Program-made: the position numbers and the translations under genes
Notes under the pieces: model-generated
The model's input: the letters and a program-made list of their open reading frames with translations, nothing else
Told to the model about the DNA's origin: nothing
The model's database searches: none
Assembly (NCBI GenBank): GCA_964399375.1
Contig: CAYNQN010000006.1
Location: forward strand, 1-33,189
Length of the DNA stretch: 33,189 nt
From: an uncultured Rhabdothermincola sp.
GTDB taxonomy: Bacteria; Actinomycetota; Acidimicrobiia; Acidimicrobiales; Acidimicrobilacustridaceae
Reading direction: 5' to 3'
Shown: positions 9,221-31,823 of the stretch, one piece after another
How positions within the stretch are numbered: position 1 is the first letter of the stretch
How the letters are laid out: each line of letters opens with the position of its first letter

Positions 9221-9304
9221 GAACGCCCGGATCGTACTTGACCCGTCCCCCATCACGAACCTGCCTGCGCTCGTCGTCAACTCGATGACAGTGATCCGAC
9301 GACA

Positions 9305-10623: not shown

Positions 10624-11831
10624 CGCACGTACGCAGGTTGGGGGATGACGGTCGGCGGAGCCCGGCGGGTCGGCTGCCCCGGGCGCTTCACCCAGGAGCC
10701 TGGTGGCTGTGGGCGCTGGGCATGGCCACGGCCGCCAGCCGCACCACCAACCCCGTGCTGCTCGGTCTCGTGGTCGCCGTGGTGGCCCTCGTGGTGGCTG
10801 CGCGCCGCACGGAGGCTCCCTGGGCCCGCGGCTTCAAGGCCTACCTCATCCTCGGGTTGGTGGTCATCGCCCTCCGTGTGGGCTTCCGGGCGCTATTGGG
10901 CAGCCAGACCGGCGAGCACGTGCTGTTCACCCTTCCCGAGATCCCCCTGCCCGACCTGGCCGCGGGGATCCGCATCGGGGGCCCGGTGGCGCTGGAGGGC
11001 TTGCTGGCCGCCCTCTACGACGGCATGCGCCTTGCCACCCTGCTCATCTGCCTCGGCGCAGCCAACGTGCTGGCCAACCCCAAGCGTCTCCTCAAGGCGC
11101 TGCCCAGCGCCCTGCACGAAGCCGGTGTGGCCGTCACCGTCGCGCTCACCATCGCTCCCCAGCTGGTCGAGAGCGCCCTGCGGGTGGGCAGGGCGAGAAA
11201 GCTCCGGGGCGAGCCCGGAAGGCGCCTGCGGTTGCTGCACGAGGTGGGGATCCCGGTGATGACCGATGCCCTCGAGAGGTCGCTGCTACTGGCGGCGGCC
11301 ATGGACTCACGCGGCTACGGCAGGGCCGGGACGCTGGCGCGCTCCACGAGGGCCGTCACGGGAGCACTGGTCGTGGGAGGGCTGGTGGGCGTGTGCGTGG
11401 GCACCTACGGGCTGCTCGACGCCAGCACCAGCCGCGCCCTCGGGCTGCCCATGTTGTTGGCGGGCGTGATCGTGGCCACGGTGGGGATGGTGATGGGCGG
11501 CCGCCGCGTGCGCACCAGCCGGTACCGCCCCGATCCGTGGAGGGCCCCCGAGTGGGCCGTGGCCGCGTCGGGCATCGCCGCCGCCGCCGTGATGATCGCC
11601 GTGGGCAACGTGGACCCGTCCAGCCTCAACCCCTCGCTGGAGCCCTTGCAGTGGCCGGCCGTCTCGGTCGCCCCTGTGGTGGGGATCCTCGTCGGGGCCC
11701 TCCCGGCATGGCTCGCACCGCCCGTGATGCTCACCGGCGCACCCCCGGCGACGCGCTCGGAGGAGTGGCTGGCCGGCGGGTCGGCGTTGCTCGAGACGAC
11801 TGATCGCCGGCAGGCGGAGCCGGCGCGGTGA
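10620..11831 (+). CDS. ecfT: ECF transporter transmembrane (T) component, CbiQ/EcfT family, with an extra C-terminal membrane extension (403 aa)
   Basis: ATG 10620 overlaps the upstream stop (ATGA). The protein is polytopic and hydrophobic. It has EcfT coupling-helix motifs (ALRVGRARKLRG and LLLAAAMDSRGYG). About 150 additional C-terminal residues carry further hydrophobic segments. Confidence 0.8.
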   Translation: MTHVRRLGDDGRRSPAGRLPRALHPGAWWLWALGMATAASRTTNPVLLGLVVAVVALVVAARRTEAPWARGFKAYLILGLVVIALRVGFRALLGSQTGEHVLFTLPEIPLPDLAAGIRIGGPVALEGLLAALYDGMRLATLLICLGAANVLANPKRLLKALPSALHEAGVAVTVALTIAPQLVESALRVGRARKLRGEPGRRLRLLHEVGIPVMTDALERSLLLAAAMDSRGYGRAGTLARSTRAVTGALVVGGLVGVCVGTYGLLDASTSRALGLPMLLAGVIVATVGMVMGGRRVRTSRYRPDPWRAPEWAVAASGIAAAAVMIAVGNVDPSSLNPSLEPLQWPAVSVAPVVGILVGALPAWLAPPVMLTGAPPATRSEEWLAGGSALLETTDRRQAEPAR

Positions 11832-13447
11832 TCACCTTCGAGTCGGTATCCATCACCTACCCCGGCGCAACGTCGCCCACCCTGCACGACGTGGACCTGG
11901 TGATCGAGGAGGGAGAGCTCTGCCTCGTCGTCGGCTCCACGGGCTCGGGCAAGTCCACGCTGCTGGGCGCCATCAACGGGCTGGTCCCCCACTTCACCGG
12001 CGGGCACCTGGGGGGGAGCGTGCGGGTGGACGGGCGCGAGACGCGCACGCACCCGCCGCGCGAGCTGGCCGACGTGGTGGGGGTGGTGGGGCAGGATCCG
12101 CTCTCGGGCTTCGTCACCGACACCGTCGAAGAGGAGCTGGCCTACTGCATGGAGCAGCTGGCCCTGCCACCCCAGGCCATGCGCAAGCGCGTGGAGGAGA
12201 TCCTCGACCTCCTCGGCATCGCCGAGCTGCGATCCAGGCCGCTGCGCACGCTCTCCGGGGGCCAGCAGCAGAGGGTTGCGATCGGTTCGGTGCTCACAGC
12301 GCACCCGCGCATCCTGGTGCTCGACGAGCCGACCTCCGCCCTCGACCCCACTGCCGCAGAGGAGGTGCTGGCCGCCATCACCCGCCTGGTCCACGACCTC
12401 GGGGTGACCGTGGTGATCGCCGAGCACCGACTGGAGCGGGTGGTCCAGTACGCCGACCGGGTCGTCGAGCTCCTGGACGGAGGCACCGTAGAGACGGGGC
12501 GACCCGCTGAGGTCTTCGCCAAAGCCACCCTCGCTCCCCCGGTGGTGCAGCTCGGGCGCCTGTGCGGTTGGGAACCCCTTCCCCTTTCGGTGCGCGAGGC
12601 ACGACGCCAGGCTCCGGAGCTGCGGGGGAGGCTTTCGACCACCTCGGTGCCGCGCCGCGAGGGTGTTGAGGGCGGCACTGTCCTACGTGCCCGCTCGGTG
12701 GTCGTGCGCTACGGAGAGCTCGTGGCGGTCCGGGAGGTCGACCTCGACCTGCACGCGGGCCAGGTGGTGGCCCTCATGGGCCGCAACGGATCTGGCAAGT
12801 CGTCGCTGCTCTGGGCGCTCCAGGGAAGCGGGCGCCGCCACGACGGCACGGTGGAGGTGAACGGCTCCGACCCCGGGGCACAGCCCGCCCGACAGGCCCG
12901 CCAGCTGGTGGGACTGGTGCCGCAGACGCCGGCCGACCTGCTCTTCCTCACGACGGTGGGCAACGAGCTCGCTCAGGCCGACAGCGACGCGGGGGCACCT
13001 CCGGGCACCGCAGCCGCCCTGCTGGAGCGCCTGGTGGGGCCGACGACCCTCGACATCCACCCCGCCGACCTGTCGGAGGGCCAGAAGCTCGCTCTGGTCC
13101 TGGCCATCCAGCTCACAGCCGCGCCCGACGTCGTGCTGCTCGACGAGCCCACGAGGGGCCTCGACTACGGGGCCAAGGCACAGCTCACCGGCATCCTCAC
13201 AACCCTGGCCGCCCAAGGCACCGCCGTGGTGGTGGCCACCCACGACGTGGAGTTCGTGGCAGGGGTGGCCCACCGCGTGGTCGTGATGGCGACCGGAGAG
13301 GTGGTGGCCGACGGGCCCGCCGCCGAGGTCGTCGGCACGTCTCCCGCCTTCGCACCCCAGGTAGCTCGAATACTGCACCCCGAGCCGTGGCTCACGGTGG
13401 AAGAGGTGGCGTCGGCATTGCGGGAGCTGGAGGGCGCGACGCCATGA
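11828..13447 (+). CDS. Fused tandem ABC ATPase (EcfA-EcfA') of an ECF transporter (539 aa)
   Basis: There are two complete nucleotide-binding domains: Walker A GSTGSGKST and GRNGSGKSS, signatures LSGGQQQRV and LSEGQKLAL, Walker B ILVLDEPTS and VVLLDEPTR. The GTG start overlaps the EcfT stop (GTGA). Confidence 0.9.
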   Translation: MITFESVSITYPGATSPTLHDVDLVIEEGELCLVVGSTGSGKSTLLGAINGLVPHFTGGHLGGSVRVDGRETRTHPPRELADVVGVVGQDPLSGFVTDTVEEELAYCMEQLALPPQAMRKRVEEILDLLGIAELRSRPLRTLSGGQQQRVAIGSVLTAHPRILVLDEPTSALDPTAAEEVLAAITRLVHDLGVTVVIAEHRLERVVQYADRVVELLDGGTVETGRPAEVFAKATLAPPVVQLGRLCGWEPLPLSVREARRQAPELRGRLSTTSVPRREGVEGGTVLRARSVVVRYGELVAVREVDLDLHAGQVVALMGRNGSGKSSLLWALQGSGRRHDGTVEVNGSDPGAQPARQARQLVGLVPQTPADLLFLTTVGNELAQADSDAGAPPGTAAALLERLVGPTTLDIHPADLSEGQKLALVLAIQLTAAPDVVLLDEPTRGLDYGAKAQLTGILTTLAAQGTAVVVATHDVEFVAGVAHRVVVMATGEVVADGPAAEVVGTSPAFAPQVARILHPEPWLTVEEVASALRELEGATP

Positions 13448-14382
13448 CATCCCAGGGGTCCGGCCCATCCGTCCTCGCTCCGGCCAACGCTGTCGGCCCG
13501 GGCCACCCGGCCGAGCCCTCGGCGGGACGCCGCCAAAGTGCCCTGCGGGTGAGGCCCAGGCCGGCGGCGGTCCTCGCGGTCGCGTCCTTGGCGGGCCTCG
13601 CCATGTTCTGCTGGCCGCTGCTGGTGAAGCCGCCCGAGGGACTGGCGCACCAGACCGACGCCCCCTTTATCTTCGTGCTGATCCTGCCGCTGGTGCTGGC
13701 CGTGATCCTGGCCGAGCTGCACGCGCCCGGCGCCCCCGCTCGCTCGGGAGGCCCGCCCGGACCCGCACGCGCAGGGGGTATGGACATCAAGGCCCTCGCC
13801 ATGTTGGGCGTGCTCGCCGCCGTGGGCGCCGCACTGCGGCCCCTCGGAGCGGGCCTCGCCGGCATCGAGCCCATGTTCTTCCTGCTCGTGCTGGGCGGCA
13901 GGGCCTACGGACCCGGCTTCGGCTTCGTGCTGGGTTCCACCACCATGTTCGCCTCCGCCCTGCTGACTGGGGGCGTGGGGCCATGGCTCCCGTTCCAGAT
14001 GCTCGCCGCATCGTGGATGGGCATGGGAGCGGGCCTGCTGCCCCGAGCGTCCGGGAAGACGGAGATAGCGATGCTGGCCGCATACGGAGCGGTCTCCTCC
14101 ATCGCCTACGGCGCCCTGCTCAACCTCTGGTTCTGGCCCTTCAGCGTGGGACTCAGCACAGACGTGTCGTACATCCCGGGGGCTCCGGTGCTCGAGAACC
14201 TGCACCGCTTCCTGACGTTCACGTTCTACACGTCGGTCCTGGGCTGGGACGTGGGCCGGGCCGTGATCACGACGGTCGCCATCGTGGTGCTGGGCTCACC
14301 CGTGCTGTTCGCCCTCCGCCGCGCCATCCGCAAGGCCGCCTTCGACGCCCCGGTCGCGTTCGGGTTGGGAGAGGGCGGCTGA
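13444..14382 (+). CDS. ECF transporter substrate-specific (S) component, unusually long (312 aa); putative cobalamin-specific
   Basis: ATG 13444 overlaps the ATPase stop (ATGA). There are about 6 hydrophobic segments (for example FIFVLILPLVLAVILAEL, ALAMLGVLAAVGAAL, MFFLLVLGGRAYGPGFGFVLGSTTMFASALL). Its position as the last gene of a T-AA'-S module behind a B12 riboswitch supports the call. The family assignment rests on context and topology, not on a motif I can name. Confidence 0.6.
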   Translation: MTSQGSGPSVLAPANAVGPGHPAEPSAGRRQSALRVRPRPAAVLAVASLAGLAMFCWPLLVKPPEGLAHQTDAPFIFVLILPLVLAVILAELHAPGAPARSGGPPGPARAGGMDIKALAMLGVLAAVGAALRPLGAGLAGIEPMFFLLVLGGRAYGPGFGFVLGSTTMFASALLTGGVGPWLPFQMLAASWMGMGAGLLPRASGKTEIAMLAAYGAVSSIAYGALLNLWFWPFSVGLSTDVSYIPGAPVLENLHRFLTFTFYTSVLGWDVGRAVITTVAIVVLGSPVLFALRRAIRKAAFDAPVAFGLGEGG

Positions 14383-19629: not shown

Positions 19630-19718
19630 CCGCCCGGTCCTGCCGGCCGGCACCCGCCAGCTCAATGTTCTGCTTGGCCTCCGTGGCCTTGAACGGGCAC
19701 AGCGCAGCGGTGGTATCG

Positions 19719-19791
19719 CGCCTCCGGTTGGAATCGAACCAACGACCTTGGGATTAGAAGTCCCCTGCTCTATCCGCTGAGCTACGGAGGC
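19719..19791 (-). tRNA. tRNA-Arg (anticodon TCT)
   Basis: The reverse complement folds as: acceptor GCCTCCG/CGGAGGC, D arm GCTC-AGCGGATA-GAGC, anticodon arm GGGGA-CTTCTAA-TCCCA (TCT; 27:43 is a G:A mismatch), T arm GTTGG-TTCGATT-CCAAC, discriminator G. Confidence 0.9.
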
Positions 19792-19819
19792 GAGGAGGTC
19801 GAGTGTATGGCCGAACCGG

Positions 19820-19849
19820 TTGGGGACCCGGGAGGGGTCGTCCTATGAT
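19820..19849 (+). promoter_or_regulatory. Candidate sigma-70-type promoter for the tRNA-His/tRNA-Lys unit
   Basis: TTGGGG (19820-19825), an 18-nt spacer, then TATGAT (19844-19849), which ends 11 nt before G-1 of tRNA-His. This is a pattern match only. Confidence 0.3.
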
Positions 19850-19860
19850 CGTCAACTCAC

Positions 19861-19939
19861 GGTGGCCGTAGCTCAGCTCGGTTAGAGCGCCAGGTTGTGG
19901 CCCTGGAGGTCGGGGGTTCAAGTCCCCTCGGCCACCCCA
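19861..19939 (+). tRNA. tRNA-His (anticodon GTG) with encoded G-1 and encoded 3' CCA
   Basis: G-1 (19861) lies opposite discriminator C (19936). Acceptor GTGGCCG/CGGCCAC, anticodon arm CCAGG-TTGTGGC-CCTGG (GTG), T arm GGGGG-TTCAAGT-CCCCT, CCA at 19937-19939. Confidence 0.93.
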
Positions 19940-19942
19940 CGT

Positions 19943-19990
19943 GAAGCAGCCGGGTGGTCCGAACGCTTGACCTGGCCACCCGGCTGCTTC
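19943..19990 (+). terminator. Perfect 15-bp stem-loop between tRNA-His and tRNA-Lys (terminator, attenuator or processing element)
   Basis: GAAGCAGCCGGGTGG (19943-19957) and CCACCCGGCTGCTTC (19976-19990) are exact reverse complements, separated by an 18-nt loop. Confidence 0.5.
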
Positions 19991-20011
19991 GCTAAACTGC
20001 AGATTCGATTT

Positions 20012-20084
20012 GCACCTCTAGCTCAATTGGCAGAGCAACGGACTCTTAATCCGCAGGTTCTGGGTTCGAGTCCCAGGGGGTGTA
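20012..20084 (+). tRNA. tRNA-Lys (anticodon CTT)
   Basis: Acceptor GCACCTC/GGGGTGT (G1:T72 and T6:G67 wobbles), D arm GCTC-AATTGGCA-GAGC, anticodon loop CTCTTAA (CTT), T arm CTGGG-TTCGAGT-CCCAG, discriminator A. Confidence 0.88.
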
Positions 20085-20126
20085 CGGAAGTATTCGTGCC
20101 GTCGAGCACGCGACTTGAGGAGAGAG

Positions 20127-22367
20127 ATGCTCGAGCGGCTAGGCAGGTTCTGCGCACGCAGGCACTGGCAGACCATCGTGATCTGGATCGTCGTGATCGT
20201 CGCGGTGGGCTTGTTTGCCCAGGTGCACCACGGCGAGTCCGAGGATGTCTTCACGGTGCCGGGCACGCAATCGCAGGAGGCTCTCGACCTGCTGCAGACC
20301 AGCTTCCCCTCGGCGGCGGGCACCAGCATCACGGTGGTCTGGGAGGCCCAGAGCGGGACGCTCAACGATCCCGCCCAACAGGCTGCGATCAACCAGGCGG
20401 TAGCCGATCTCAAGGCGATGGACGGCGTGTCCAGCGTGTCCAGCCCCTTCGAGCCGGCACCCACGGGCATCGACGTGGTCGACGGGCAGGTTCAGGTGGA
20501 GACCACGCCGCTCAACATCAACGGCGCCGGCACCGTGGGCTTCAGCGTGGTCCAGTTCGACCACAGCCTCACCAACCTGGAACAGGCGGAGGCGATCTTC
20601 GAGGCCACCCAGCAGGCCGCCCAGCCCGCCGTGAGCGCGGGTGTGGTGGTGAACTACGGGGGCCCGGTGGTCGACACGGCCAACGCTCCCGACCCGGGCA
20701 TCTCGCAGTACTCCGAGCTGATCGGCATCATCTTCGCAATCATCATCCTGCTCATCGCGCTGGGCTCGGCCACCTCGATGGCCGTGCCGATCGTCATCGC
20801 CCTCATCTCGGTCTTCACGTCTCACAACATCGTGTCGATCCTCGAGTCGAGCTTCACCATCGGCTCCGTCGCTCCCATCCTGGGGTCGATGATCGGCCTC
20901 GGTGTGGGGATCGACTACTCGCTGTTCATCGTCAGCCGGTTCCGCCAGAACCTGAAGGACGGGATGAGCGTCGGCGACGCGGTGGGCAAGGCCATCGCCA
21001 CGTCGGGCTCGGCGGTGCTGTTCGCCGGCATCACCGTGTGCATAGCGCTCTGCGCCCTCTACTTCGTGCAGATCCCCTACGTCGCCCAGCTGGGCTACAT
21101 CGCAGCGCTGTTCGTGGCGATCACCATCTTCACCACGCTCACCCTGGTGCCGGCCGTGCTCGGTGCCCTCGGCAAGCGCATCAACTCTGGCCGGATCCAC
21201 CGCCGCGACGAGACCCAGGACATCCACAAGACCCTCTCGGCGCGGTGGGCAGCCACCACCTCGCGCCACCCCATCCGCTACGCGGTGATCAGCTTGCTGG
21301 TGCTGCTGGTGCTGGCGCTGCCGCTGCGCAGCATGCACCTGGGGTTCACCGACGCCGGCGACATGAGCCACGAGCTAACGCAGCACCAGGCGTTCGAGAC
21401 CCTCGGCGAGAACTTCGGGCCGGGTGAGAACGGACCCCTGCTGCTGGCGGTGTCGCTCCCCGAGGTGACGGCCGACAACGCAGTGGGCATCCTCGAGTCG
21501 TTCGACAAGCTCAACACGGCGGTGGCCGCCACGCCGGGCGTGGCCCGGGTGTCGCTGCCGGTCCCGAACAACTTCCCCTCCGAGGCCCATCCCGACGCCA
21601 TGCCCACGGCGGCGATCGTGCAGGTGGTGCCCACCACCGCCCCCAACGCCGACGAGACGGCCGACCTCGTGGAGCGCCTGCGCAACGACGTGATCCCCAC
21701 CGCTCTCGAGGGCGAGACCATAAGCGCCTCCCAGGTGTACGTGGGGGGTCAGACCGCCATCCTCATCGACCTCTCCGACGCCCTCAGCTCCAGGCTGTTC
21801 CTCTTCATCGGCGTGGTGGTGCTGGGTGCCTTCCTGCTGTTGATGATGGTCTTCCGGTCGGTCTTCGTTCCCTTCAAGGCAGCGTTGATGAACCTGCTGT
21901 CGATAGGCAGCGCCTACGGCGTGATCATCGCCGTGTTCCAGTGGGGCTGGCTCAAGGGCCTGGTGGACCTGGAGAACACGGTGCCCATAGTGGCGTTCGT
22001 GCCGGTGATGATGTTCGCCGTGCTCTTCGGGCTCTCGATGGACTACGAGGTGTTCCTCATCGCCCGCATCAAAGAGGAGTACAACAAGACCGGCGACAGC
22101 CGCCAGAGCGTGGTCACAGGCCTGGCTGCCACAGCCAGGGTGATAACGGCAGCTGCTCTCATCATGATCGCCGTGTTCATCTCGTTCGTGCCCAACCCCG
22201 ACCCCACCGTGAAGATGATCGGGCTGGGCCTCGCTGTGTCGGTTCTCATCGACGCCACCATCGTGCGCATGATGCTCGTGCCCTCCACGATGGAGCTCGC
22301 CGGCAAGGCGAACTGGTGGATCCCGTCCTGGCTCGATCGGATCCTCCCCCGCATCCACGTCGACTGA
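20127..22367 (+). CDS. MMPL-family (RND superfamily) membrane transporter (746 aa)
   Basis: Frame of ORF 20115..22367. ATG 20127 is preceded by GAGGAGAGAG. It has two 6-TM bundles with large extracytoplasmic loops, the motifs GVGIDYSLFIVSRFRQ and GLSMDYEVFLIARIKEEY, and a C-terminal NWWIPSWLDRILP. Confidence 0.9.
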   Translation: MLERLGRFCARRHWQTIVIWIVVIVAVGLFAQVHHGESEDVFTVPGTQSQEALDLLQTSFPSAAGTSITVVWEAQSGTLNDPAQQAAINQAVADLKAMDGVSSVSSPFEPAPTGIDVVDGQVQVETTPLNINGAGTVGFSVVQFDHSLTNLEQAEAIFEATQQAAQPAVSAGVVVNYGGPVVDTANAPDPGISQYSELIGIIFAIIILLIALGSATSMAVPIVIALISVFTSHNIVSILESSFTIGSVAPILGSMIGLGVGIDYSLFIVSRFRQNLKDGMSVGDAVGKAIATSGSAVLFAGITVCIALCALYFVQIPYVAQLGYIAALFVAITIFTTLTLVPAVLGALGKRINSGRIHRRDETQDIHKTLSARWAATTSRHPIRYAVISLLVLLVLALPLRSMHLGFTDAGDMSHELTQHQAFETLGENFGPGENGPLLLAVSLPEVTADNAVGILESFDKLNTAVAATPGVARVSLPVPNNFPSEAHPDAMPTAAIVQVVPTTAPNADETADLVERLRNDVIPTALEGETISASQVYVGGQTAILIDLSDALSSRLFLFIGVVVLGAFLLLMMVFRSVFVPFKAALMNLLSIGSAYGVIIAVFQWGWLKGLVDLENTVPIVAFVPVMMFAVLFGLSMDYEVFLIARIKEEYNKTGDSRQSVVTGLAATARVITAAALIMIAVFISFVPNPDPTVKMIGLGLAVSVLIDATIVRMMLVPSTMELAGKANWWIPSWLDRILPRIHVD

Positions 22368-22449
22368 CCGCAGGGCCGGACCGCCGCCGGGAACCCAACC
22401 CGGCCCCCGCCCACGTGGGTGGGCCAGGTAGATGTGATAGACGACGGTG

Positions 22450-23235
22450 ATGGCCAACGTCATCTCCATCCACTCGTTCCGCGGCGGTACCGGCAAGAGC
22501 AACAGCACCGCCAACATCGCCGCCCAGCTCGCCCGGGCGGGCAACCGGGTTGCGGTGGTCGACACCGACATCCAATCGCCCGGCATCCACGTGCTCTTCG
22601 GCTTCAGCGAAGACGCCCTGGGCCTCACGCTGAACGACTACCTGTACGGCAACTGCTCCATCGCCGAGGCCGCTCACGACGTGACCAGCCAGCTCGACGG
22701 GCCCGAGGGCCCACCCGCTGCGGGGGCCGCCCTGTGGTTGGTGCCGTCGAGCATCAAGGCGGGCGACATCGCCAAGGTGCTGCGAGAGGGGTACGACGCA
22801 GGGGTCCTCAACGACGGGTTCCGCGAGCTGTCGGAGTCGCTCGAGCTCGACTACCTCCTCATCGACACGCACCCCGGGCTGAACGAGGAGACGTTGCTGT
22901 CGATCACGGTGTCGGACACGCTCGTGCTGCTGATGCGACCCGACCGCCAGGACATCCAGGGCACCGCCGTCACGGTCGACGTGGCTCGTCGCCTGGGCGT
23001 GCCCGAGCTCCTGCTGCTCGTGAACATGGTGCCCTCCTCGGTCGACCGGGGGGCGCTCGGTCCCGACCTGGCCGCTGCGTACGGGGTGGAGGTGGCGGGG
23101 TTGCTGCCCCTGAGCGAGACCGTGGTGGAGAACTCGTCGTCGGCCCTCTTCTCGGTCGTGAGCCCCGATGAGGAGTGGTCGCGAGTGATCGCCGGCGTGG
23201 CGGCCCGCATCGCACAGGCGCCTTCCCAGAGCTGA
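22450..23235 (+). CDS. ParA/MinD-family P-loop ATPase with Arg in place of the signature Lys (261 aa)
   Basis: Frame of ORF 22447..23235 (GTG 22447 or ATG 22450). The deviant Walker A reads SFRGGTGKSNSTANIA (canonical is KGGxGK[ST]). Other motifs are A' VAVVDTD and Walker B YLLIDTHPG. The overall length and layout are MinD/ParA-like. Confidence 0.8.
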   Translation: MANVISIHSFRGGTGKSNSTANIAAQLARAGNRVAVVDTDIQSPGIHVLFGFSEDALGLTLNDYLYGNCSIAEAAHDVTSQLDGPEGPPAAGAALWLVPSSIKAGDIAKVLREGYDAGVLNDGFRELSESLELDYLLIDTHPGLNEETLLSITVSDTLVLLMRPDRQDIQGTAVTVDVARRLGVPELLLLVNMVPSSVDRGALGPDLAAAYGVEVAGLLPLSETVVENSSSALFSVVSPDEEWSRVIAGVAARIAQAPSQS

Positions 23236-23274
23236 CCCAGGCCCGCACGACTCCCCCGAGGGCAAGGACCGAAG

Positions 23275-23817
23275 ATGGCAGAAGACGACGAGCTGTTCAG
23301 CCGGGAGGAGGTGCTCTCGGGCCGAGCCTCGCCCGGCGACGTCCGCAGGGCCAGGGCGATCCTCTACCTCATAGAGCAGGAGGCGCAGCGCTCGTCGGAT
23401 CGCCAGGACGGCCTGAACACGGTGGCCATGGCCGCCGCATCGGGCATGACGGTGGACCTGGCACAGGTGCTCGACCCCGAGACGCTCGCAGGGGCTCTTC
23501 CGGGCGAGCGTGACGAAGCCTTCCTGGCATCCTTCCGGGCGGCGAGGCGCGGGGCGGAGACGCCCGAGCTGAAGCGCTTGGAGCGCTTCGCCGACGACTG
23601 GAAGGTGCTGGTGCCCGAGCGCCTCGACCTGAGGGTGCGGCTGTTTGCCGAGCTGGCGGGGCGCTACGAGATCGACCCCAAGCGCGCCAAGCAGGTCTGC
23701 GCTGCCTTCGGCACCGACGACCCAGCGTTCGCTGCCACCTACGAGAGGCTCTTCCGCAAGCCCCTGGAGGACGCCTTCGTGCGGCGCAAGGGCCTCTTCG
23801 GACGCAAGAAGGCCTGA
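23275..23817 (+). CDS. Hypothetical protein (180 aa); acidic N-terminus and basic C-terminal tail; possible partner of the ParA-like ATPase
   Basis: It starts 39 nt downstream of the ATPase stop on the same strand, and codon bias is good. The N-terminus is MAEDDELFSREEVL and the C-terminus is FVRRKGLFGRKKA. No family is recognised. Confidence 0.6.
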   Translation: MAEDDELFSREEVLSGRASPGDVRRARAILYLIEQEAQRSSDRQDGLNTVAMAAASGMTVDLAQVLDPETLAGALPGERDEAFLASFRAARRGAETPELKRLERFADDWKVLVPERLDLRVRLFAELAGRYEIDPKRAKQVCAAFGTDDPAFAATYERLFRKPLEDAFVRRKGLFGRKKA

Positions 23818-23908: not shown

Positions 23909-24679
23909 ATGGTCCGACCTGCCGCCCAGCTCCGCAGCCACCTGGAAGGAACCGTCTTCGCCGACCATCTCGACGGCGACGGCGGCCTCGTGCTGGCCCT
24001 GCACGGGTGGGGAAGGGACCGCACCGACCTGGCCACCGTGGTGGAGGGCCGGCGGGCCATCTGCGTGGACCTGCCGGGCTTCGGCTCCTCTCCCCCGCCG
24101 CCGGAGCCCTGGGGCTCGGCCGACTACGCCACCGCCATGGCACGGCTCCTGGACGAGGCCGGTGAGCGGAGCGCTCTGGTGGTGGGCCACAGCTTCGGCG
24201 GGAGGGTGGCGGTGTGCCTGGCCGCCTCCCGGCCAGACCTGGTGCGTGGGGTCGTGTTGGCGGGGGTGCCCCTGCTCCGACTGGGCCCCGTCCCCCGGCC
24301 GTCGCGCTGGTTCCGGTTCGTGCGCTGGGCCAACCGGGTGCACCTGGTTCCCGACGCCACGATGGAGCGGCTGCGCCGCAAGCGGGGCTCGGCCGACTAC
24401 AACGCAGCCACCGGCGTGATGCGCCAGGTGCTGGTGAAGGCGGTCGGCGAGACCTACGAGACCGAGCTGGCGGCGATCGCCGCAGCGACGCCCGTGGGCT
24501 TCTGCTGGGGCGAGCTCGACACGGCCTCTCCTCCCGAGGTCGCCCGCCGAGCTGCGGGGATGGTGGGCAACTGCGCCGAGCTGGACGTGGTGGCAGGTGC
24601 CGGCCACGACGTGCACCGCGACGCTCCCGAATCCTTCCGCTCGGTCCTGGACGCCACCGAGCAGGCGGTGGGCTCGTGA
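23909..24679 (+). CDS. Alpha/beta-fold hydrolase (256 aa)
   Basis: It has the oxyanion-region LALHGWG, the nucleophile elbow GHSFGG, and a C-terminal GAGHDVH (catalytic His region). The stop overlaps the next gene's GTG start (GTGA at 24676-24679). Confidence 0.85.
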   Translation: MVRPAAQLRSHLEGTVFADHLDGDGGLVLALHGWGRDRTDLATVVEGRRAICVDLPGFGSSPPPPEPWGSADYATAMARLLDEAGERSALVVGHSFGGRVAVCLAASRPDLVRGVVLAGVPLLRLGPVPRPSRWFRFVRWANRVHLVPDATMERLRRKRGSADYNAATGVMRQVLVKAVGETYETELAAIAAATPVGFCWGELDTASPPEVARRAAGMVGNCAELDVVAGAGHDVHRDAPESFRSVLDATEQAVGS

Positions 24680-26229
24680 TCGCCTTGCAGCTCCTTGCCG
24701 TGGTCGCAGGTGTGGCTGCCGCTGGAGTGGGCGTGGCGCGATGGCTTCGGGTCGCACAGCGCGAGCACTACCTGGCGGGCTCGTGCTCCACGGTCCTCTG
24801 GCGCTGGGTGCGGCGACGCCCGCCCAACATCGCCATCGACGTGGTCGCCACCCTGGGAGCTGTCGCCTCGGTCGTGCTCGCCATCGCTGGCCCACGGGCG
24901 GTGGCGGCCGTGGTCGTGCTCGCCTCGGCCCTGGTCGTGGCGACCTTTCCCTTTCCCATGCCGGTGCTGGGAAGGAGCTCGCGGCTGGTGCTCACCCGCC
25001 GGGCCCGGGTGCTCGGGCTCGTCACGCTCCTGCTGGTGGCGCTCGTGTGCCTCCTCGCGTGGATCCTGGGGGCAGGCCTGGCCGGGCCGGTGGTGGCCGC
25101 CCTGGCCATGCCGGCCCTCGTCGACACGGCGGCCGGCATCACAGCGCCCTTCGAGCGGCGTTCCATGGAGCGCCACCGGCGCAGGGCGCAAGCCCGCCTC
25201 GAGGCCGTGGGTCCCCGAGTGGTGGCAGTGACAGGAAGCTGGGGGAAGACCTCGACCAAGAACCACCTGCGTGACCTGCTGGCGGGGTCGGTGGAGGTGG
25301 TCGCCTCGCCCGCTTCGTGGAACAACACCGGCGGGCTCTCACGCACCATCAACGAGCACGTCGGTGACTCCACCGAGGTCCTGGTGGCCGAGATGGGCAT
25401 GTACGGGCCGGGAGAGATCGCCGAGCTGTGCTCGTGGATCCACCCCGAGGTGTCGGTCATCTGCGCCGTGGGGCCCATGCACCTGGAGCGGGTCGGCTCG
25501 ATGGAGGCGATCGTGGCCGCAAAGGCCGAGATCGCCGAGGGGGCCAGGGCCGTGGTGCTCTGGGTCGACCACGCCCCCCTCGCCGAGCTGGCGGCGCGCC
25601 TGCCGGGCTCACAAGAGCTGTGGAGGGTGGGGACCGCCGGCACCTCGGACGACCTGGACGTGTCGGTTCGCACCGACGAGTCGGGCACCGTGCACATCTC
25701 GCACCGGGGAGCCGAAGTGGGCTCCTACCCCGCCGGCTCGGGAGTGCACCCGGGCAACGCCGCCTGCGCGGTGGCGGCTGCCCTGGCCATGGGCCTGCCC
25801 GCGAGCGCCGTCGGCCCACGCGTCGCCCATCTCTCTAACCCCGCCCACCGCAGCGCCGCCGGTGTCTCCGAGCGGGGCGTGTGGGTGCTCGACGACACCT
25901 TCAACTCCAACCCCGTGGGGGCGAGGGCGGCAGTGGGTGCGCTGGCATCGGCCGTGCCTACCGGCAGGCGCGCCGTGGTGACCCCCGGGATGGTGGAGCT
26001 GGGGCCGATGCAGCACGAGGCAAACCGCGAGCTGGCCGCCCAGGTCTTGAGCAGCGGCGCCACGCTCGTGGTGGTGGGTTGGACCAACCGCACCGCGCTG
26101 CTGGAAGGCGCCGGGGGACACGCTGTGAAGGTCGCCACCCGGGAGGCCGCCCGCGACTGGGTGCGAGCCAACCTCGGCGAGGGCGACGGGGTGCTCTGGG
26201 AGAACGACCTCCCCGACCACTACCCCTGA
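24676..26229 (+). CDS. Mur-ligase family protein, MurF-like central and C-terminal domains fused to an N-terminal polytopic membrane domain (517 aa)
   Basis: Frame of ORF 24214..26229, with the start at GTG 24676. The first ~165 aa contain 4-5 hydrophobic helices (for example IALQLLAVVAGVAAAGVGVA, VLGLVTLLLVALVCLLAWILG). These are followed by the Mur ligase P-loop VAVTGSWGKTSTKNHL, EMGMYGPGEI, GPMHLERVGS, and the MurF-type C-domain motif LDDTFNSNP. No soluble UDP-binding N-domain is evident. Confidence 0.8.
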   Translation: MIALQLLAVVAGVAAAGVGVARWLRVAQREHYLAGSCSTVLWRWVRRRPPNIAIDVVATLGAVASVVLAIAGPRAVAAVVVLASALVVATFPFPMPVLGRSSRLVLTRRARVLGLVTLLLVALVCLLAWILGAGLAGPVVAALAMPALVDTAAGITAPFERRSMERHRRRAQARLEAVGPRVVAVTGSWGKTSTKNHLRDLLAGSVEVVASPASWNNTGGLSRTINEHVGDSTEVLVAEMGMYGPGEIAELCSWIHPEVSVICAVGPMHLERVGSMEAIVAAKAEIAEGARAVVLWVDHAPLAELAARLPGSQELWRVGTAGTSDDLDVSVRTDESGTVHISHRGAEVGSYPAGSGVHPGNAACAVAAALAMGLPASAVGPRVAHLSNPAHRSAAGVSERGVWVLDDTFNSNPVGARAAVGALASAVPTGRRAVVTPGMVELGPMQHEANRELAAQVLSSGATLVVVGWTNRTALLEGAGGHAVKVATREAARDWVRANLGEGDGVLWENDLPDHYP

Positions 26230-26314
26230 GATAGAACCAGCACCTGTGCCGGGCCCGCCCACGTCGCCGCCCGGGCGCCGGCGGCGCAGGGCCGCACAGC
26301 TAGGCTCGCCGGCC

Positions 26315-27427
26315 ATGAGCGCCGTCGCCGTGGTCTTCGGAGGGCCGTCACCCGAGCACGACATCAGCATCCTCACGGGCCTCCAGGCCGCCCGTGCCCT
26401 GGCCGACGGCGGCACCCAGGTCGCCTGCCTCTACTGGACCAAGACCGCCGAGTGGCTCCAGGTTCCCGTAGGTTCCGAGGCCTCGTCCTTCCTGGAGCCG
26501 ACGCCTCCCGGCTCTTCCCCCATCGACCTGTCGGTTCCCGGAGGCTTCCAGGAGCGCAAGCGCCTGCGAGGAGCCAGCCCACTCGACGTGGAGGTGGTGC
26601 TCAACTGCTGCCACGGAGGGCCCGGCGAGGACGGCACGCTCGCAGGCCTGCTGATGCTGGCGGGCTACAAGGTGAGCGGGCCCAACCCGGAAGCCAGCGC
26701 CCTGGCCATGGACAAGCTGGCCACCACCGCCCTGGCCGCCGACGCGGGCATCCCCGTGATCCAGACGGTGGCGCTCACCGAAGACCTGGAGAAGCTGGAG
26801 ATCCAGGCGCCGTGGGTCGTGAAGCCCCGCTTCGGAGGCTCGTCCATCGGCGTGGAGGCGGGCGTGTCCGACCTGGAGACGGCCCGGGCGCTGGGGCGCA
26901 CCGGCGCCGGCCGGGCCGGGATGATCGCGCAGCCGTTCCTGGAGGGATGGGCCGACCTCAACGTGGCCGTGCGCACATTTCCCGAGCTTTCCGTGTCTGC
27001 CATAGAGCGGCCCTTGCGGGAAGGTGCCGGCGTGTACGACTACGCGGGCAAGTACCTGCGGGGCGGCGGAGGCGCGGTGGGCATGGAGGCCGCTCCCCGG
27101 GAGCTGCCAGCGAACATCCCGGACACGATCTCAGAGCAGATCCGGCAGCACGCCTCGACGTTGGTGCGCACCGGGGGGCTCACCGGGGCCGTGCGGGTGG
27201 ACTTCCTCTGGGATGGCGACGACGCCCTGGTGCTCTGCGAGGTCAACTCCATCCCGGGTGCCTGGGGCGCTTACCTCTGGCAGGCCGTGGGCGTGCCCCG
27301 CGGCCAACTCCTGAACGACCTGGTAGCAGAGGCAGCCGCGGGTGCGACCCGCAGGCCGCAGTGGTCGGCCACAAGCGACGGAGCCGCCCTCCGGGCCGCC
27401 GGCTCCGTGGCCAGCAAGCTCGCCTGA
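26315..27427 (+). CDS. ddl: D-alanine--D-alanine ligase family ATP-grasp enzyme (370 aa)
   Basis: Frame of ORF 26246..27427, trimmed to ATG 26315 (MSAVAVVFGGPSPEHDISILTG, a canonical Ddl N-terminus). It has CHGGPGEDGTLAGLLMLAG, VVKPRFGGSSIGV, the omega-loop region VYDYAGKYL followed by an inserted RGGGGAVGMEAA, and CEVNSIPG. Confidence 0.85.
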   Translation: MSAVAVVFGGPSPEHDISILTGLQAARALADGGTQVACLYWTKTAEWLQVPVGSEASSFLEPTPPGSSPIDLSVPGGFQERKRLRGASPLDVEVVLNCCHGGPGEDGTLAGLLMLAGYKVSGPNPEASALAMDKLATTALAADAGIPVIQTVALTEDLEKLEIQAPWVVKPRFGGSSIGVEAGVSDLETARALGRTGAGRAGMIAQPFLEGWADLNVAVRTFPELSVSAIERPLREGAGVYDYAGKYLRGGGGAVGMEAAPRELPANIPDTISEQIRQHASTLVRTGGLTGAVRVDFLWDGDDALVLCEVNSIPGAWGAYLWQAVGVPRGQLLNDLVAEAAAGATRRPQWSATSDGAALRAAGSVASKLA

Positions 27428-27506
27428 CACCACCCTCGGCCGAGAGGCGCCGAGGTTTCAGAGAGCCGGGCGGGTGAGCGTCACAGGCCGGGGGCAGAAT
27501 GGGGCG

Positions 27507-30500
27507 ATGCCGTCGGTCGCCCAGCCCCCCGCCCCGCCCCTGGAGACCGGCGGCGCCTCGGGCTCGTCGTTCGATGCCCTGGCGACCTTCCACCCGGCCG
27601 TGCGGGAGTGGTTCCGGCGGCGCTTCCCCCACGGGCCGACCGAGCCGCAAGCCCAGGGCTGGCCCCTGATCGCCGAAGGCCGCGACGTGCTCATCGCCGC
27701 CCCGACGGGATCGGGCAAGACGCTCGCCGGCTTCCTGGTGGCGATCGACGCCCTCTACCACGCCCACGAACGAGGGGAGGATGTCACCACGACCACCCGC
27801 GTGGTCTACGTGTCGCCCCTGAAGGCCCTCGCAGTGGACGTGGCCGAGAACCTGCAACGACCGCTCGCCGAGATCGCGGAAGTGGCCGCCGAGCTCGGCC
27901 TCGCCGCCCCGGAGCTGCGCGTCGCCGTGCGCACCGGCGACACCACCAGCTCGCAGCGAGCCTCCATGGTGCGCAGGCCCCCCAGCTTCGTGGTGACCAC
28001 GCCGGAGTCCCTCTACCTGCTGGTCACCAGCGAGCGGGGTCGCCAGGCCCTGCGTACGACCCGCACGGTCATCGTCGACGAGGTCCACGCCACGGCGCGC
28101 GACAAGAGGGGCTCCCACCTCGCCGTCACCCTGGAGCGCCTGGAGGAGCTCTGCGACGAGCGACCTGCGCGGGTGGGCCTGTCGGCCACCCAGCGGCCCA
28201 TAGAGGCGATCGGCCGGCTCCTGGTGGGAGAGCGCCCGCTTCCCGCCATCGTCGACGCCGGCCACCAGCGCACGCTCGACCTGGCGCTCGAGCTGCCCGA
28301 CGGCGAGCTGGAAGCGGTGACCTCAGCCGAGCAGATGGCCGACGTGCTCGACCAGATCGCCGCTCTGGTCCGCGAGCACCACACCACCCTCGTCTTCGTG
28401 AACACCAGGCGGATGGCCGAGCGTCTGGCCCACCAGCTGGCAGAGCGCCTGGGCGACGACGACCGCCCGGGCCAAGAGGTGGTGGCCGCCCACCACGGGA
28501 GCCTCTCCAGGGATCGGCGCCACCGGGTGGAGGCACGCCTGCGGAACGGGCAGCTCAAGGCCCTGGTGGCCACGGCCTCCCTCGAGCTGGGCATCGACAT
28601 CGGGCCCGTCGACCTGGTGTGCCAGATCGGCTCCCCCCGCAGCATCGCCACCTTCCTGCAGCGGGTCGGCCGCTCCAACCACAGCCGCTCCGGAATCCCC
28701 AAGGGCCGCCTCTACCCGCTCACCCGCGACGAGCTGGTGGAGTGCACCGCCCTGCTCGCAGCGGTGAGGGCCGGGCGCCTGGACGCCGTGACAATGCCCA
28801 CGGCACCTCTCGACATAGCGGCACAGCAGGTCGTGGCCGAGGTGGCCGCCAGGGAGTGGCGCACCGACGACCTCTTCGCTCTCCTGCGCCGTTCGGCGCC
28901 CTACGCAGACATGAGCCGGGCCGACTTCGACGACGTGATCGACCTCGTGAGCCAGGGGATCCGGACGGGCCGGGGCGAGCGGGGCCGCTACATCCACCAC
29001 GACTCGGTGAACGGCGAGCTGAGGGCCCGTGGTCACGCCCGTATCGCCTCGGCCACCTCCGGCGGAGCCATCCCCGAGACGGGTGATTACAAGGTGGTGG
29101 CAGAGCCCGACGACACCTTCGTGGGCACCGTCAACGAGGACTGGGCCGTCGAGTCGATGGCGGGCGACATCTTCCTGCTGGGAACCCACTCGTGGCAGAT
29201 CCGCAAGGTGGAGCCTGGTGTGGTGCGCGTGCGCGACGCGGGCGACGCCGCCCCCACCATCCCCTTCTGGCTGGGAGAGGGCCCCAGCCGCACTCCCGAG
29301 CTCTCCGAGGAGGTCTCCGAGCTCCGCCGCGTGGTCTCCGAGCACCTGGAGGCGGGCGATCCCGACGGAGCGCGGGCCTGGCTGGTGGAGGTGGCCGGCG
29401 TCAGCGAGCTGGCCGCGGCCCTGGTGGTCGACTACCTCGCCGTGGGCAAGGCCGCCCTGGGAGCTCTGCCCACGCAGGAGCGCCTGATCTTCGAGCGCTT
29501 CTTCGACGAGACGGGCGGGATGCAGCTGGTGGTCCACTCGCCCAACGGGGCGCGCATCAACCGGGCTCTGGGCCTGGCCCTGCGCAAGAAGTTCTGCCGC
29601 ACTTTCAACTTCGAGCTGCAGGCCGCAGCCAGCGACGACGCCATCGTGCTCTCGCTCGGCCCGCACCACAGCTTCCCGCTCGACGAGGTGCCCGGCTACG
29701 TGCGGTCCTCCAACGCGGAGGAGACCCTGGCCCAGGCGGTTCTCGACTCGCCCATGTTCCAGTCGCGCTGGCGCTGGAACCTCAACCGCTCGCTCATGGT
29801 GCCCCGATTCCGCAACGGGCGGCGCAACCCCCCTCCCATCCAGCGGATGGAGTCCGACGACCTGATGGCGGCCGTGTTCCCGCAGGCCGCCGCCTGCCAG
29901 GAGAACATCACCGGGCCGATCGAGATCCCCGACCACGTGCTGGTGCGCCAGACCATCCACGACACCCTCCACGAGGCGCTCGACACCGATGGCCTCAAGG
30001 AGCTGCTCGGCCGCGTGGAGGATGGCGAGGTGGAGCTGGTGTTCTGCGAGACCACCGAGCCCTCGGTGCTCGCCCACGAGATCCTCACCGCCCGCCCCTA
30101 CGCCTTCCTCGACGACGAGGGCGAGGTGCAGAACAGGCGCACCAGTGCCGTGCAGCTGCGCAGGGGCCTCTCGGTGGACCTCAGCTCCATCGGGGCGCTC
30201 GACCCCGGCGCGATCGAGACCGTCCACGAGGAGATCACGCCCAACCCGCGCTCCGCCGACGACCTCCACGACCTGCTCTCGTCCCTGGTCATCACCGCGC
30301 CCCGGCCCGACTGGGCCGAGCTGTGGGGTCAGCTGGCCTCCCGCGGCCGGGTGCGGGAGATCGAGCACCTGGGTAGCCCGCTGTGGGCCACCACCGAGAG
30401 CGCCGGCCTGGCCGAGGCCGCCCTGGCCGGCGAGGACGAGGCGGTGGTGGCCGCCGTGCGCGGCCACCTGGAGATCGCCGGCATCACCACCGTGGAGCGC

Positions 30501-31823
30501 CTGGCCGCCTCCAGCGCCCTGGCCGAGGGTCGTGTCCGGTCGGGGCTCGCCGCCCTCGAGGCAGAGGGCTTCGCCCTCCAGGGCCACTACACGAGCGACG
30601 ACATCGGCGACGACACCACCCAATACATCTCGCGGCGGTTGCTGGCCAGGATGCACTCGTACTCGCGGCGGGTACGCCGCCAGCGGACCGAGCCGGTGAC
30701 GGCGCAGGACTTCATGCGCTTCCTGCTGCGCTGGCAGCACGTGGCGCCGGGCACGCAGCTGTTCGGCCCTCAGGGGGCCATGGCCGCCGTGGAGCAGCTG
30801 CAGGGCTTCGAGGCCGCCGCCGTGGCGTGGGAGCCCGAGCTGCTGGCCCGGAGGGTCCGGCGCTACGAGCCCGCCTGGCTCGACGAGCTCTGCCACGAGG
30901 GAGCGGTGGCTTGGCTCAGGCTCACTCCGAAGACCGCCGTCGCGGAGGGCGGCCCCGCGGCCTCCCCATCGAAGGCCACGCCCATCTCCGTGGTGGCCCG
31001 CGACGACCTGGGGTGGCTGCTGACCGCCGCCCGGTCGCACTCGCAGCCGGCAGAGCCAACCGTCGGCGCCACCGCCGAGGTGGTGGAGGTGCTGCGCCAG
31101 CGGGGCGCTTGCTTCGCCGGCGACCTCACTGCGGCCACGCGCCGCCTGCCCGACGACGTGACCCGGGGCCTGTGGGACGGTGTCGCACGAGGCCTGGTGA
31201 TGTGCGACGGGTTCGGCGCCATCCGCGCCCGGGTGTCGGGCCCCCAGGCACGGCCCTCCCGCAGTCGCTTCTCGCGCCTTCGGCGAGCGGGCTCGCAGCG
31301 AGGCTCGGCCGCCGGTCGCTGGTCTGCCGTGCCCGACGGGCCCATCGGGCACGGCAGGCACGACTCCTCACTCGCGGACGACCTCGACGACGAGGGTGGC
31401 GACTTCGACCCCGACGAGCTGGCCGAGGCCGTCGCCGAGCAGCTCCTCGCACGCTGGGGCGTGCTGTTCCGCGACCTCGCCGTGCACGACTCCATGGGCA
31501 TGCGCTGGCGCGACCTCCAGTGGGCACTGAGGCGCCTGGAAGACCGCGGGCTGGTGAGGGGCGGGCGCTTCGTCTCGGGCTTCGGCGGCGAGCAGTACGC
31601 GCTTGCCGAGGCCGCCGAGCAGCTGGAGCACACCCGGAAGCGACCCCGCGACGGCGAGCGCGTCACCGTGAACGCCACCGATCCACTCAACCTGGCCGGG
31701 GTGCTGCTCCCCGGGCCGCGGGTCCCCTCGGTGCGCACCAACCAGGTGACCTACCTCGACGGCGTGCCCGAGGCTCCCGAGCACCGTCGGGATGCCTCGC
31801 ACGGCCTCGCCGACACCGCCTGA
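27507..31823 (+). CDS. lhr: ATP-dependent DNA helicase Lhr (large helicase-related, 1438 aa)
   Basis: Frame of ORF 27342..31823, with the start at ATG 27507. It has FHPAVREWFRRRF, motif I APTGSGKTL, motif II VIVDEVH, the Lhr-core signature regions (SATQRP, HHGSLSRDRR, LELGIDIG) and a long C-terminal domain. The size is typical of full-length actinobacterial Lhr. Confidence 0.92.
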   Translation: MPSVAQPPAPPLETGGASGSSFDALATFHPAVREWFRRRFPHGPTEPQAQGWPLIAEGRDVLIAAPTGSGKTLAGFLVAIDALYHAHERGEDVTTTTRVVYVSPLKALAVDVAENLQRPLAEIAEVAAELGLAAPELRVAVRTGDTTSSQRASMVRRPPSFVVTTPESLYLLVTSERGRQALRTTRTVIVDEVHATARDKRGSHLAVTLERLEELCDERPARVGLSATQRPIEAIGRLLVGERPLPAIVDAGHQRTLDLALELPDGELEAVTSAEQMADVLDQIAALVREHHTTLVFVNTRRMAERLAHQLAERLGDDDRPGQEVVAAHHGSLSRDRRHRVEARLRNGQLKALVATASLELGIDIGPVDLVCQIGSPRSIATFLQRVGRSNHSRSGIPKGRLYPLTRDELVECTALLAAVRAGRLDAVTMPTAPLDIAAQQVVAEVAAREWRTDDLFALLRRSAPYADMSRADFDDVIDLVSQGIRTGRGERGRYIHHDSVNGELRARGHARIASATSGGAIPETGDYKVVAEPDDTFVGTVNEDWAVESMAGDIFLLGTHSWQIRKVEPGVVRVRDAGDAAPTIPFWLGEGPSRTPELSEEVSELRRVVSEHLEAGDPDGARAWLVEVAGVSELAAALVVDYLAVGKAALGALPTQERLIFERFFDETGGMQLVVHSPNGARINRALGLALRKKFCRTFNFELQAAASDDAIVLSLGPHHSFPLDEVPGYVRSSNAEETLAQAVLDSPMFQSRWRWNLNRSLMVPRFRNGRRNPPPIQRMESDDLMAAVFPQAAACQENITGPIEIPDHVLVRQTIHDTLHEALDTDGLKELLGRVEDGEVELVFCETTEPSVLAHEILTARPYAFLDDEGEVQNRRTSAVQLRRGLSVDLSSIGALDPGAIETVHEEITPNPRSADDLHDLLSSLVITAPRPDWAELWGQLASRGRVREIEHLGSPLWATTESAGLAEAALAGEDEAVVAAVRGHLEIAGITTVERLAASSALAEGRVRSGLAALEAEGFALQGHYTSDDIGDDTTQYISRRLLARMHSYSRRVRRQRTEPVTAQDFMRFLLRWQHVAPGTQLFGPQGAMAAVEQLQGFEAAAVAWEPELLARRVRRYEPAWLDELCHEGAVAWLRLTPKTAVAEGGPAASPSKATPISVVARDDLGWLLTAARSHSQPAEPTVGATAEVVEVLRQRGACFAGDLTAATRRLPDDVTRGLWDGVARGLVMCDGFGAIRARVSGPQARPSRSRFSRLRRAGSQRGSAAGRWSAVPDGPIGHGRHDSSLADDLDDEGGDFDPDELAEAVAEQLLARWGVLFRDLAVHDSMGMRWRDLQWALRRLEDRGLVRGGRFVSGFGGEQYALAEAAEQLEHTRKRPRDGERVTVNATDPLNLAGVLLPGPRVPSVRTNQVTYLDGVPEAPEHRRDASHGLADTA

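Follow-up and report, generated by a model that had tools for sequence, protein, structure and literature searches.

The window analysed here, a single metagenome contig of 33,189 nucleotides (nt) from an uncultured Rhabdothermincola sp. (contig CAYNQN010000006.1), contained three consecutive genes which encoded an alpha/beta hydrolase, a MurF-type ligase lacking the first domain of MurF, and a Ddl-family ATP-grasp enzyme (Table 1). These assignments had been made from the letters alone in an initial annotation, and the Pfam and NCBIfam matches agreed with them. The GTG start of the ligase gene (24676-24678) overlapped the TGA stop of the hydrolase gene (24677-24679) as GTGA, and the distance from the ligase stop to the ATG of ddl was exactly 85 nt, both as previously described. 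No terminator-like sites were found on the + strand between the genes, the 85-nt spacer included. The GC content at third codon positions (GC3) of hydrolase, ligase and ddl was 0.87-0.92 and homologues numbered in the thousands; the three reading frames are therefore regarded as real. As argued below, this trio probably represents the housekeeping Ddl and MurF of its lineage, the latter in a membrane-anchored form.

Table 1. Genes, domains and motifs of the hydrolase-ligase-ddl trio (nt positions in the window; aa, amino acids; TM1, first transmembrane segment)
Feature	Position	Strand	Remarks
Alpha/beta hydrolase gene	23909-24679	+	256 aa; Pfam Abhydrolase_6, Abhydrolase_1
MurF-type ligase gene	24676-26229	+	517 aa; Pfam Mur_ligase_M, Mur_ligase_C
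N-terminal membrane region	24676-25170	+	residues 1-165; 4-5 helices; hydropathy, AlphaFold2
Family signature WLRVAQREHY	24742-24771	+	residues 23-32, directly after TM1
Mur ligase middle (ATPase) domain	25228-25719	+	residues 185-348; PF08245
P-loop TGSWGKTSTK	25231-25260	+	residues 186-195
Mur ligase C-terminal domain	25870-26196	+	residues 399-507; PF02875
DDTFNSNP	25891-25914	+	residues 406-413
TPGMVELG	25981-26004	+	Escherichia coli MurF counterpart VGDMAELG
C-terminal signature VLWENDLPDHYP	26191-26226	+	canonical MurF counterpart LVKGSR
Ligase-ddl spacer	26230-26314		85 nt
Ddl-family gene	26315-27427	+	370 aa; Pfam Dala_Dala_lig_N, Dala_Dala_lig_C
Omega-loop YDYAGKY with glycine-rich insertion LRGGGGAVGMEAAP	27035-27097	+	YDYAGKY = residues 241-247
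Short loop CEVNSIPGAWGAYLW	27236-27280	+	4 residues under canonical Ddl; Tyr at E. coli Ser281

The ligase possessed the two catalytic domains of a Mur ligase, Mur_ligase_M (5.9e-23) and Mur_ligase_C (1.9e-08), and the P-loop and DDTFNSNP motifs recognised at first inspection were located at the residues given in Table 1. When aligned with E. coli MurF, the ligase was seen to keep the P-loop, E239 (the Mg-binding Glu in AEMG), H269 (in HLE) and K283, the last residue being aligned with the carbamylated lysine of the E. coli enzyme. NCBIfam murF (TIGR01143) scored 180.5 bits versus 39 bits for murD, and in a sequence search against solved structures the MurF entry 3zl8 was matched at 4.9e-21 and MurD at about 1e-7; in a Foldseek search with the ligase model, the ten best matches were all MurF, with 4qf5 at 3e-17. 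Profile scores, sequence comparison with solved structures, and fold thus all placed the ligase closest to MurF. The C-terminal signature VLWENDLPDHYP was invariant among the 30 homologues aligned, and in the wider ligase family the variants VL[YF]ENDLPDHYP dominated.

No Pfam match was obtained in ligase residues 1-184. TIGR01143 aligned to the ligase only from model position 63, and solved MurF chains only from about chain residues 59-115; thus, domain 1 of MurF, which binds the UDP-N-acetylmuramyl (UDP-MurNAc) peptide, is absent. The initial annotation had proposed that this domain is replaced by about 165 residues with 4-5 hydrophobic helices and that the ligase is membrane-localised, and both proposals held. 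Five hydrophobic 19-mers were observed in residues 1-165 (2-20, 52-70, 75-93, 112-130, and a weaker one at 139-157), supporting the membrane localisation, and the AlphaFold2 model (pLDDT 91.4) was all-helical up to residue 178, with helices at residues 2-29, 36-47, 49-71, 74-90, 108-130, 134-143, and 145-178. Lys and Arg together numbered 6 in loop 24-52, 5 in loop 93-111, and 8 in loop 150-185. On account of this strong positive charge the three loops would be cytoplasmic, and a five-span topology with the N-terminus outside would fit best by the positive-inside rule.

Among the 30 homologues, residues W23, R25, Q28, E30, H31, Y32, W44, P92, T107, R109, D150, and E160 of this region were invariant, a degree of conservation that goes well past the needs of an anchor. 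The signature WLRVAQREHY was complete in most full-length representatives at 50% identity, and its core Q-x-E-x-Y was kept in most of the remaining ones, in the copy from a Competibacteraceae bin (locus L057), and in that from a Shapirobacteria bin (L072:9096-12109); copies from Clostridia had a looser motif, QQNSY in L067 and QLSGY in L062. The Shapirobacteria ligase was only 395 aa long with an N-terminal region of about 95 aa, had no 19-mer above the hydropathy threshold, retained Q-x-E-E-Y and ended VLFENDLGDQYF. Since this short ligase retained the motif, the motif is independent of the full set of membrane helices.

The N- and C-terminal domains of Ddl (PF01820 and PF07478) were both matched in the third protein, in which E15, H63, K97, K144, S150, K215, Y216, R255, D257, E270, N272, and G276 (numbered as in E. 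coli DdlB) were kept; it is accordingly predicted from its sequence to be a DdlA-type D-alanine--D-alanine ligase homologue with all catalytic residues. The insertion reported right after YDYAGKY amounted to about 8 residues more than in Pseudomonas aeruginosa DdlA, and its length differed among the trio-linked Ddl proteins. The window protein has neither Ser281 nor the usual loop for holding the second D-Ala by its carboxylate: in each of the 21 trio-linked Ddl sequences compared, the position aligned with Ser281 was Tyr or His, and the loop after IPG was four residues shorter. The change from Ser281 to Tyr was considered as a sign against Ddl function and was dropped because the Ddl of Helicobacter pylori (PDB 2pvp) has the same form of loop, 'neinpipgslanylf' versus 'cevnsipgawgaylw' in the window (common form IPGxxxxYL[WF]), the counterpart in Staphylococcus aureus Ddl being 'pgftafsmypklw'. 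The NF002528 model gave 150.8 bits for the window Ddl versus a cut-off of 262, which was passed by the orthologues from Clostridia (L067, 312 bits) and Competibacteraceae (L057, 270 bits).

The hydrolase matched Abhydrolase_6 at 1.3e-21 and contained, as first described, the motif GHSFGG (residues 93-98) with the nucleophile Ser95, together with the HG oxyanion motif as HGWG (residues 32-35), Asp204, and His233. S95, D204, H233, and HGWG were kept in 75-76 of the 76 hydrolases adjoining genes for transmembrane (TM) MurF, and triad, HGWG and the family-specific GSxDY in 73-76 of them. The NCBIfam model NF058580 (EstV family lipase), whose name derives from EstV, a carboxylesterase of H. pylori, was the top or near-top match, nearly full length, for the window protein and likewise for ten hydrolases taken from trios at other loci; the scores were 67 bits and 71-152 bits, respectively, all under the cut-off of 300. 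The window hydrolase is thus only remotely related to the EstV family and is not an equivalog. Inspection of the sequences revealed no obvious hydrophobic leader at the hydrolase start; therefore, the protein is taken as cytoplasmic.

The best 120 relatives of the ligase were about 505-570 aa long with 47-80% identity, nearly all matched over almost the full length, and the named hosts among them were Acidimicrobiales bins. When the ligase domains alone were used in an exhaustive search, 777 representatives at 50% identity scored below 1e-30, and the best 150 of these, fragments apart, all aligned from about residue 155-210, the proteins being about 500 aa long, indicating that the membrane-fused MurF constitutes a large family. 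Most representatives began ...WLRVAQREHY... and ended VL[YF]ENDLPDHYP. A rare family, as suggested by about 75 species in a genome scan, was rejected as an artefact of the pattern used, VLWENDLP, which fits the subclade of the window only, most members ending VL[YF]ENDLPDHYP.

Conservation of the trio, which the initial annotation had recommended for testing across Actinobacteria, was surveyed by genome scan, contig look-ups, and tblastn, and was found to reach beyond that phylum. In about 70 fetched loci, the hydrolase gene lay immediately upstream of the ligase gene, in many cases overlapping it by 4 nt, and a ddl gene was adjacent. The loci were from Acidimicrobiia, Nitriliruptoria, Clostridia (Christensenellales and others; Christensenella, Acutalibacteraceae, and Oscillospiraceae were represented), one Competibacteraceae and one Shapirobacteria genome, and an unassigned contig from a metagenome. 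The closest locus was that of a Rhabdothermincola bin (80% identity), and one copy occurred on a 1.3-Mb actinobacterial contig. The order was ddl-hydrolase-ligase in L086, the metagenome contig, and in L001. The bins of several loci (L020, L027, L028, L047, L058, L059, L064, and L079), which carry the names Streptosporangiaceae, Acidobacteria, [Ruminococcus] torques or Alistipes finegoldii, are probably wrongly labelled or binned, since their trio genes resemble those of Acidimicrobiia or Christensenellales.

The genes flanking the trio otherwise varied between genomes. Four contexts bear on its role, those in Nitriliruptoria and in an Iamiaceae locus being described further below. In the Competibacteraceae bin (CAZQXD010000002.1), the dcw cluster at nt 680-6776 consisted of mraZ-rsmH-ftsL-ftsI-murE-mraY-murD and was devoid of murF; murE (1786-3282), encoding a plain 498-aa protein, and mraY (680-1762) were only 23 nt apart. 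The trio was located at nt 8744-12433, about 2 kb past the mraZ end of the cluster, between rsmI and a dolP-like gene, and the GC content was even throughout the locus. In this gammaproteobacterial genome, the MurF of the trio thus appears to have taken the place of the dcw murF. Three Christensenellales genomes (37-46% GC) shared the arrangement rsfS-tsaE-tsaB-hydrolase-ligase-ddl-murG-gyrB-gyrA, a syntenic block of core genes of which the trio forms part. A tblastn search of all loci with E. coli dcw proteins detected dcw genes in the Competibacteraceae locus only and murG in three Clostridia loci, and a metagenome scan with the Competibacteraceae ligase returned one locus, L086, in which dcw genes were lacking.

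The reading favoured here, with a probability of about 0.62, is that the trio provides the housekeeping Ddl and MurF of the lineage and acts on a UDP-linked substrate. The three genes would form a co-transcribed cell-wall precursor unit, in which the Ddl homologue would make D-Ala-D-Ala and the membrane-anchored MurF would add it to the MurNAc-tripeptide on the cytoplasmic side of the membrane, near MraY, while the translationally coupled EstV-like serine esterase would be a conserved, possibly essential partner. We infer the enzyme activities and the UDP-MurNAc-tripeptide acceptor, as well as the sole-copy status of this MurF in the source genome. The reading is supported by the closeness of the ligase to MurF, the conservation of the trio, the dcw cluster devoid of murF, the Christensenellales synteny, the presence of the trio in the small-celled Shapirobacteria genome and on the 1.3-Mb actinobacterial contig, the literature on H. 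pylori and Campylobacter jejuni, the two sequence links to H. pylori (Ddl loop and EstV match), and the retained catalytic residues of the Ddl with orthologues that pass the NCBI cut-off. In H. pylori, MurF (HP0740; gene of 1485 bp) is described as an essential, inner-membrane protein, for which four N-terminal TM domains have been given in an account crediting Blair et al. 2018, and papers on this species treat it as the last cytoplasmic step. In C. jejuni, Ddl (Cj0798c) is found just upstream, Cj0796c has an alpha/beta hydrolase fold and could not be deleted, and MurF is Cj0795c.

The initial annotation had instead suggested a module for peptide ligation at the membrane, without deciding whether these are the housekeeping copies. 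A special, non-housekeeping module of this kind is not favoured, given a dcw cluster that is devoid of murF and has the trio about 2 kb away, the TM segments of the essential H. pylori MurF, and the gene neighbourhood shared with C. jejuni. The evidence fits the outcome which that annotation had itself set against its proposal, namely that a TM-fused MurF is a housekeeping form.

Several observations weigh against the housekeeping reading. The window ligase missed the TIGR01143 cut-off of 288.6 bits with its 180.5, the orthologues of L057, L067, and L086 likewise staying under it at 217-225 bits, and the window Ddl scored 164 bits with TIGR01205 versus a cut-off of 245.65. The C-terminal domain of the ligase departs from MurF at TPGM (GDM in MurF) and ENDLPDHYP (KGSR in MurF), sites at which the incoming dipeptide is expected to bind. 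Two Nitriliruptoria loci contained a canonical DdlB-type gene in the trio cluster, and the trio Ddl is therefore not the sole Ddl there, a situation comparable to that of DdlA and DdlB in E. coli. Elsewhere in the source organism, of which the 33-kb contig was covered, a canonical murF and another ddl may be present. Finally, the orthology to HP0740 and Cj0795c would follow from architecture, neighbours, and literature. EstV is HP0739, between ddl (HP0738) and murF (HP0740). As to the Nitriliruptoria-type loci themselves (L032:8252-12597 and L083:8720-13240), each contained a long trio Ddl, the DdlB-type Ddl (305-309 aa, passing the NCBI cut-off), the hydrolase, and the membrane-anchored MurF; a search with the DdlB-type protein of L032 returned only Nitriliruptoria relatives and none on an Acidimicrobiia chromosome with a known trio.

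Loss of the UDP-binding domain 1 would also be understandable if the unit were housekeeping with a changed order of steps, the ligase adding D-Ala-D-Ala after MraY to a lipid-linked MurNAc-tripeptide, that is, to a lipid I or lipid II analogue and not to the soluble UDP precursor. The invariant residues of the membrane region other than P92 sit in the positive loops predicted to be cytoplasmic, and in the Competibacteraceae genome with no murF in the dcw cluster the trio ligase must supply the step. MurT, which is likewise without an N-terminal nucleotide-binding domain, acts on lipid II. This order is nevertheless judged unlikely: the H. pylori papers place MurF as the last cytoplasmic step, and the Shapirobacteria ligase, with a far shorter N-terminal region and no strongly hydrophobic 19-mer, still has Q-x-E-E-Y, a motif that may therefore bind something besides a lipid carrier. 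In a broader form, equally improbable, the membrane domain, with the invariant loop WLRVAQREHY, and the obligatory EstV-like esterase would define an alternative last precursor step at the membrane, either on a lipid-linked tripeptide or within a fixed complex with MraY. If true, Acidimicrobiia, many uncultured Actinomycetota, Christensenellales, some small-celled candidate lineages, and Campylobacterota would reverse or channel the textbook MurF-then-MraY order, and the esterase would be a new, possibly essential component of the pathway.

The scores of both ligases under the curated family cut-offs and the diverged motifs in the C-terminal domain of the MurF-type enzyme could instead point to an accessory paralogous module present beside canonical murF and ddl genes, which would transfer a dipeptide to another membrane-bound acceptor or serve in precursor repair or recycling, while the esterase would undo or edit what is made. 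Flanking genes that vary between genomes, as for a movable module, and the DdlB-type gene alongside the trio in Nitriliruptoria are in line with this possibility, to which a low probability is given, since it is at odds with the absence of murF from the Competibacteraceae dcw cluster, the Christensenellales core-gene synteny, the occurrence of the trio in the Shapirobacteria genome and on the 1.3-Mb contig, the essential H. pylori MurF of the same architecture, and the very large size of the family (the 777 representatives). The altered second-substrate region of the Ddl (short loop, Tyr/His at Ser281, and omega-loop insertion), together with published cases of extra murF genes accompanying van genes in some Actinobacteria, raised the further question of a van-like alternative terminus of the resistance type, with a Ddl producing D-Ala-D-X, a ligase dedicated to this dipeptide, and an esterase that takes off the usual dipeptide or terminus. 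This was rejected as very improbable: the omega-loop retains Lys215 and Tyr216, the H. pylori protein with the same short loop is deposited as a D-Ala-D-Ala ligase, and no vanH, vanX, vanR or vanS was observed beside the trio in any locus with genes listed. Tyr at position 216 marks D-Ala-D-Ala ligases. In addition, a survey of 216 Acidimicrobiales assemblies reported no van-like genes.

Directly upstream of the trio, nt 20115-23817 of the window encoded a 750-aa transporter of the MMPL family, a 262-aa P-loop ATPase resembling ParA/MinD, and a protein of 180 aa for which Pfam gave no match; the adjacency of these genes to the trio was not kept in other genomes. Downstream of ddl was a large open reading frame (ORF) for an Lhr-type helicase (27342-31823); because the longest reading shares the final 86 nt of ddl, the gene probably starts later, and the Pfam scan was made with the reading from 27507. 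Five tRNA genes were present in the window (regions 19718-20085, 8245-8320, and 9148-9220), with a cluster of Arg-tct, His-gtg, and Lys-ctt directly upstream of the MMPL gene. The tRNA-Pro gene (8245-8320) fell within the 5' extension of a long AMP-binding ORF (6533-8392) on the opposite strand; thus, the AMP-binding gene must start further downstream. The GC content was 0.73-0.75 at nt 10001-14000 versus 0.65-0.69 in the first 10 kb. With regard to other Mur genes near trio loci, an Iamiaceae locus had a MurL-like epimerase and MurD 7 kb from the trio, and in two Acidimicrobiia loci (L011:61-2779 and L085:8659-11329) a MurL-like epimerase gene was next to that of a MurD-type ligase, away from dcw genes. 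In L011, MurD is one half of a MurL-MurD2 pair that lies outside the dcw cluster, and the Joint Genome Institute name of the ligase beside the epimerase is L-glutamate ligase, which suggests that Acidimicrobiia may use the Xanthomonas-type route, with addition of L-Glu followed by its epimerisation.

For the window, the practical outcome is annotation as a housekeeping-type ddl/murF unit. MurF and Ddl are antibiotic targets, and MurF is described in textbooks as soluble; a published survey of Mur fusion proteins makes no mention of a membrane-fused MurF. What is new is the breadth of the membrane-anchored MurF family, which takes in many uncultured Actinomycetota, and the conservation of the trio, the family travelling with a short-loop Ddl and an EstV-like esterase in at least five bacterial lineages.

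Compared with canonical soluble MurF (E. coli b0086; PDB 1gg4, 4cvk, 3zl8, and 4qf5), the window ligase shares the middle and C-terminal domains, the P-loop, the Mg-binding Glu, HLE, the lysine aligned with the carbamylation site, and the DDxxNxNP motif, but has a polytopic membrane region instead of domain 1 and is encoded outside a dcw cluster. Like MurT of the MurT/GatD pair, it has a Mur-ligase fold without the nucleotide-binding N-domain and is accompanied by a partner enzyme; however, MurT has no membrane helices and works with a glutaminase in place of a serine esterase. A MurT-like reading was rejected for the latter reason and because no NCBIfam MurT match was obtained for the ligase and MurF was far closer, MurT/GatD ranking 33 (E 6e-12) among the Foldseek matches. 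As in cyanophycin synthetase, an ATP-grasp enzyme is paired with a Mur ligase, but in separate genes and not in one protein polymerising Asp and Arg. The cyanophycin-like logic entertained in the initial annotation was likewise abandoned, since the ligase had no CphA match at E <= 0.01 and the Ddl is complete, its catalytic residues included.

The closest likeness was to the Campylobacterota. Several N-terminal TM segments precede the ligase domains as in H. pylori MurF, although five hydrophobic segments were predicted in the window ligase versus four reported for the H. pylori protein. The window Ddl has the 4-residue-shorter IPGxxxxYL[FW] loop of H. pylori Ddl 2pvp, and the window hydrolase matches the EstV model nearly full length, but with only 67 bits versus 300. 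The ddl, alpha/beta hydrolase, and murF neighbourhood is that of C. jejuni, with the order hydrolase-murF-ddl in the window versus ddl-hydrolase-murF in C. jejuni, and the host is of a different phylum, Actinomycetota, class Acidimicrobiia. Most likely, therefore, the window carries an Acidimicrobiia member of an arrangement already known in H. pylori and C. jejuni.

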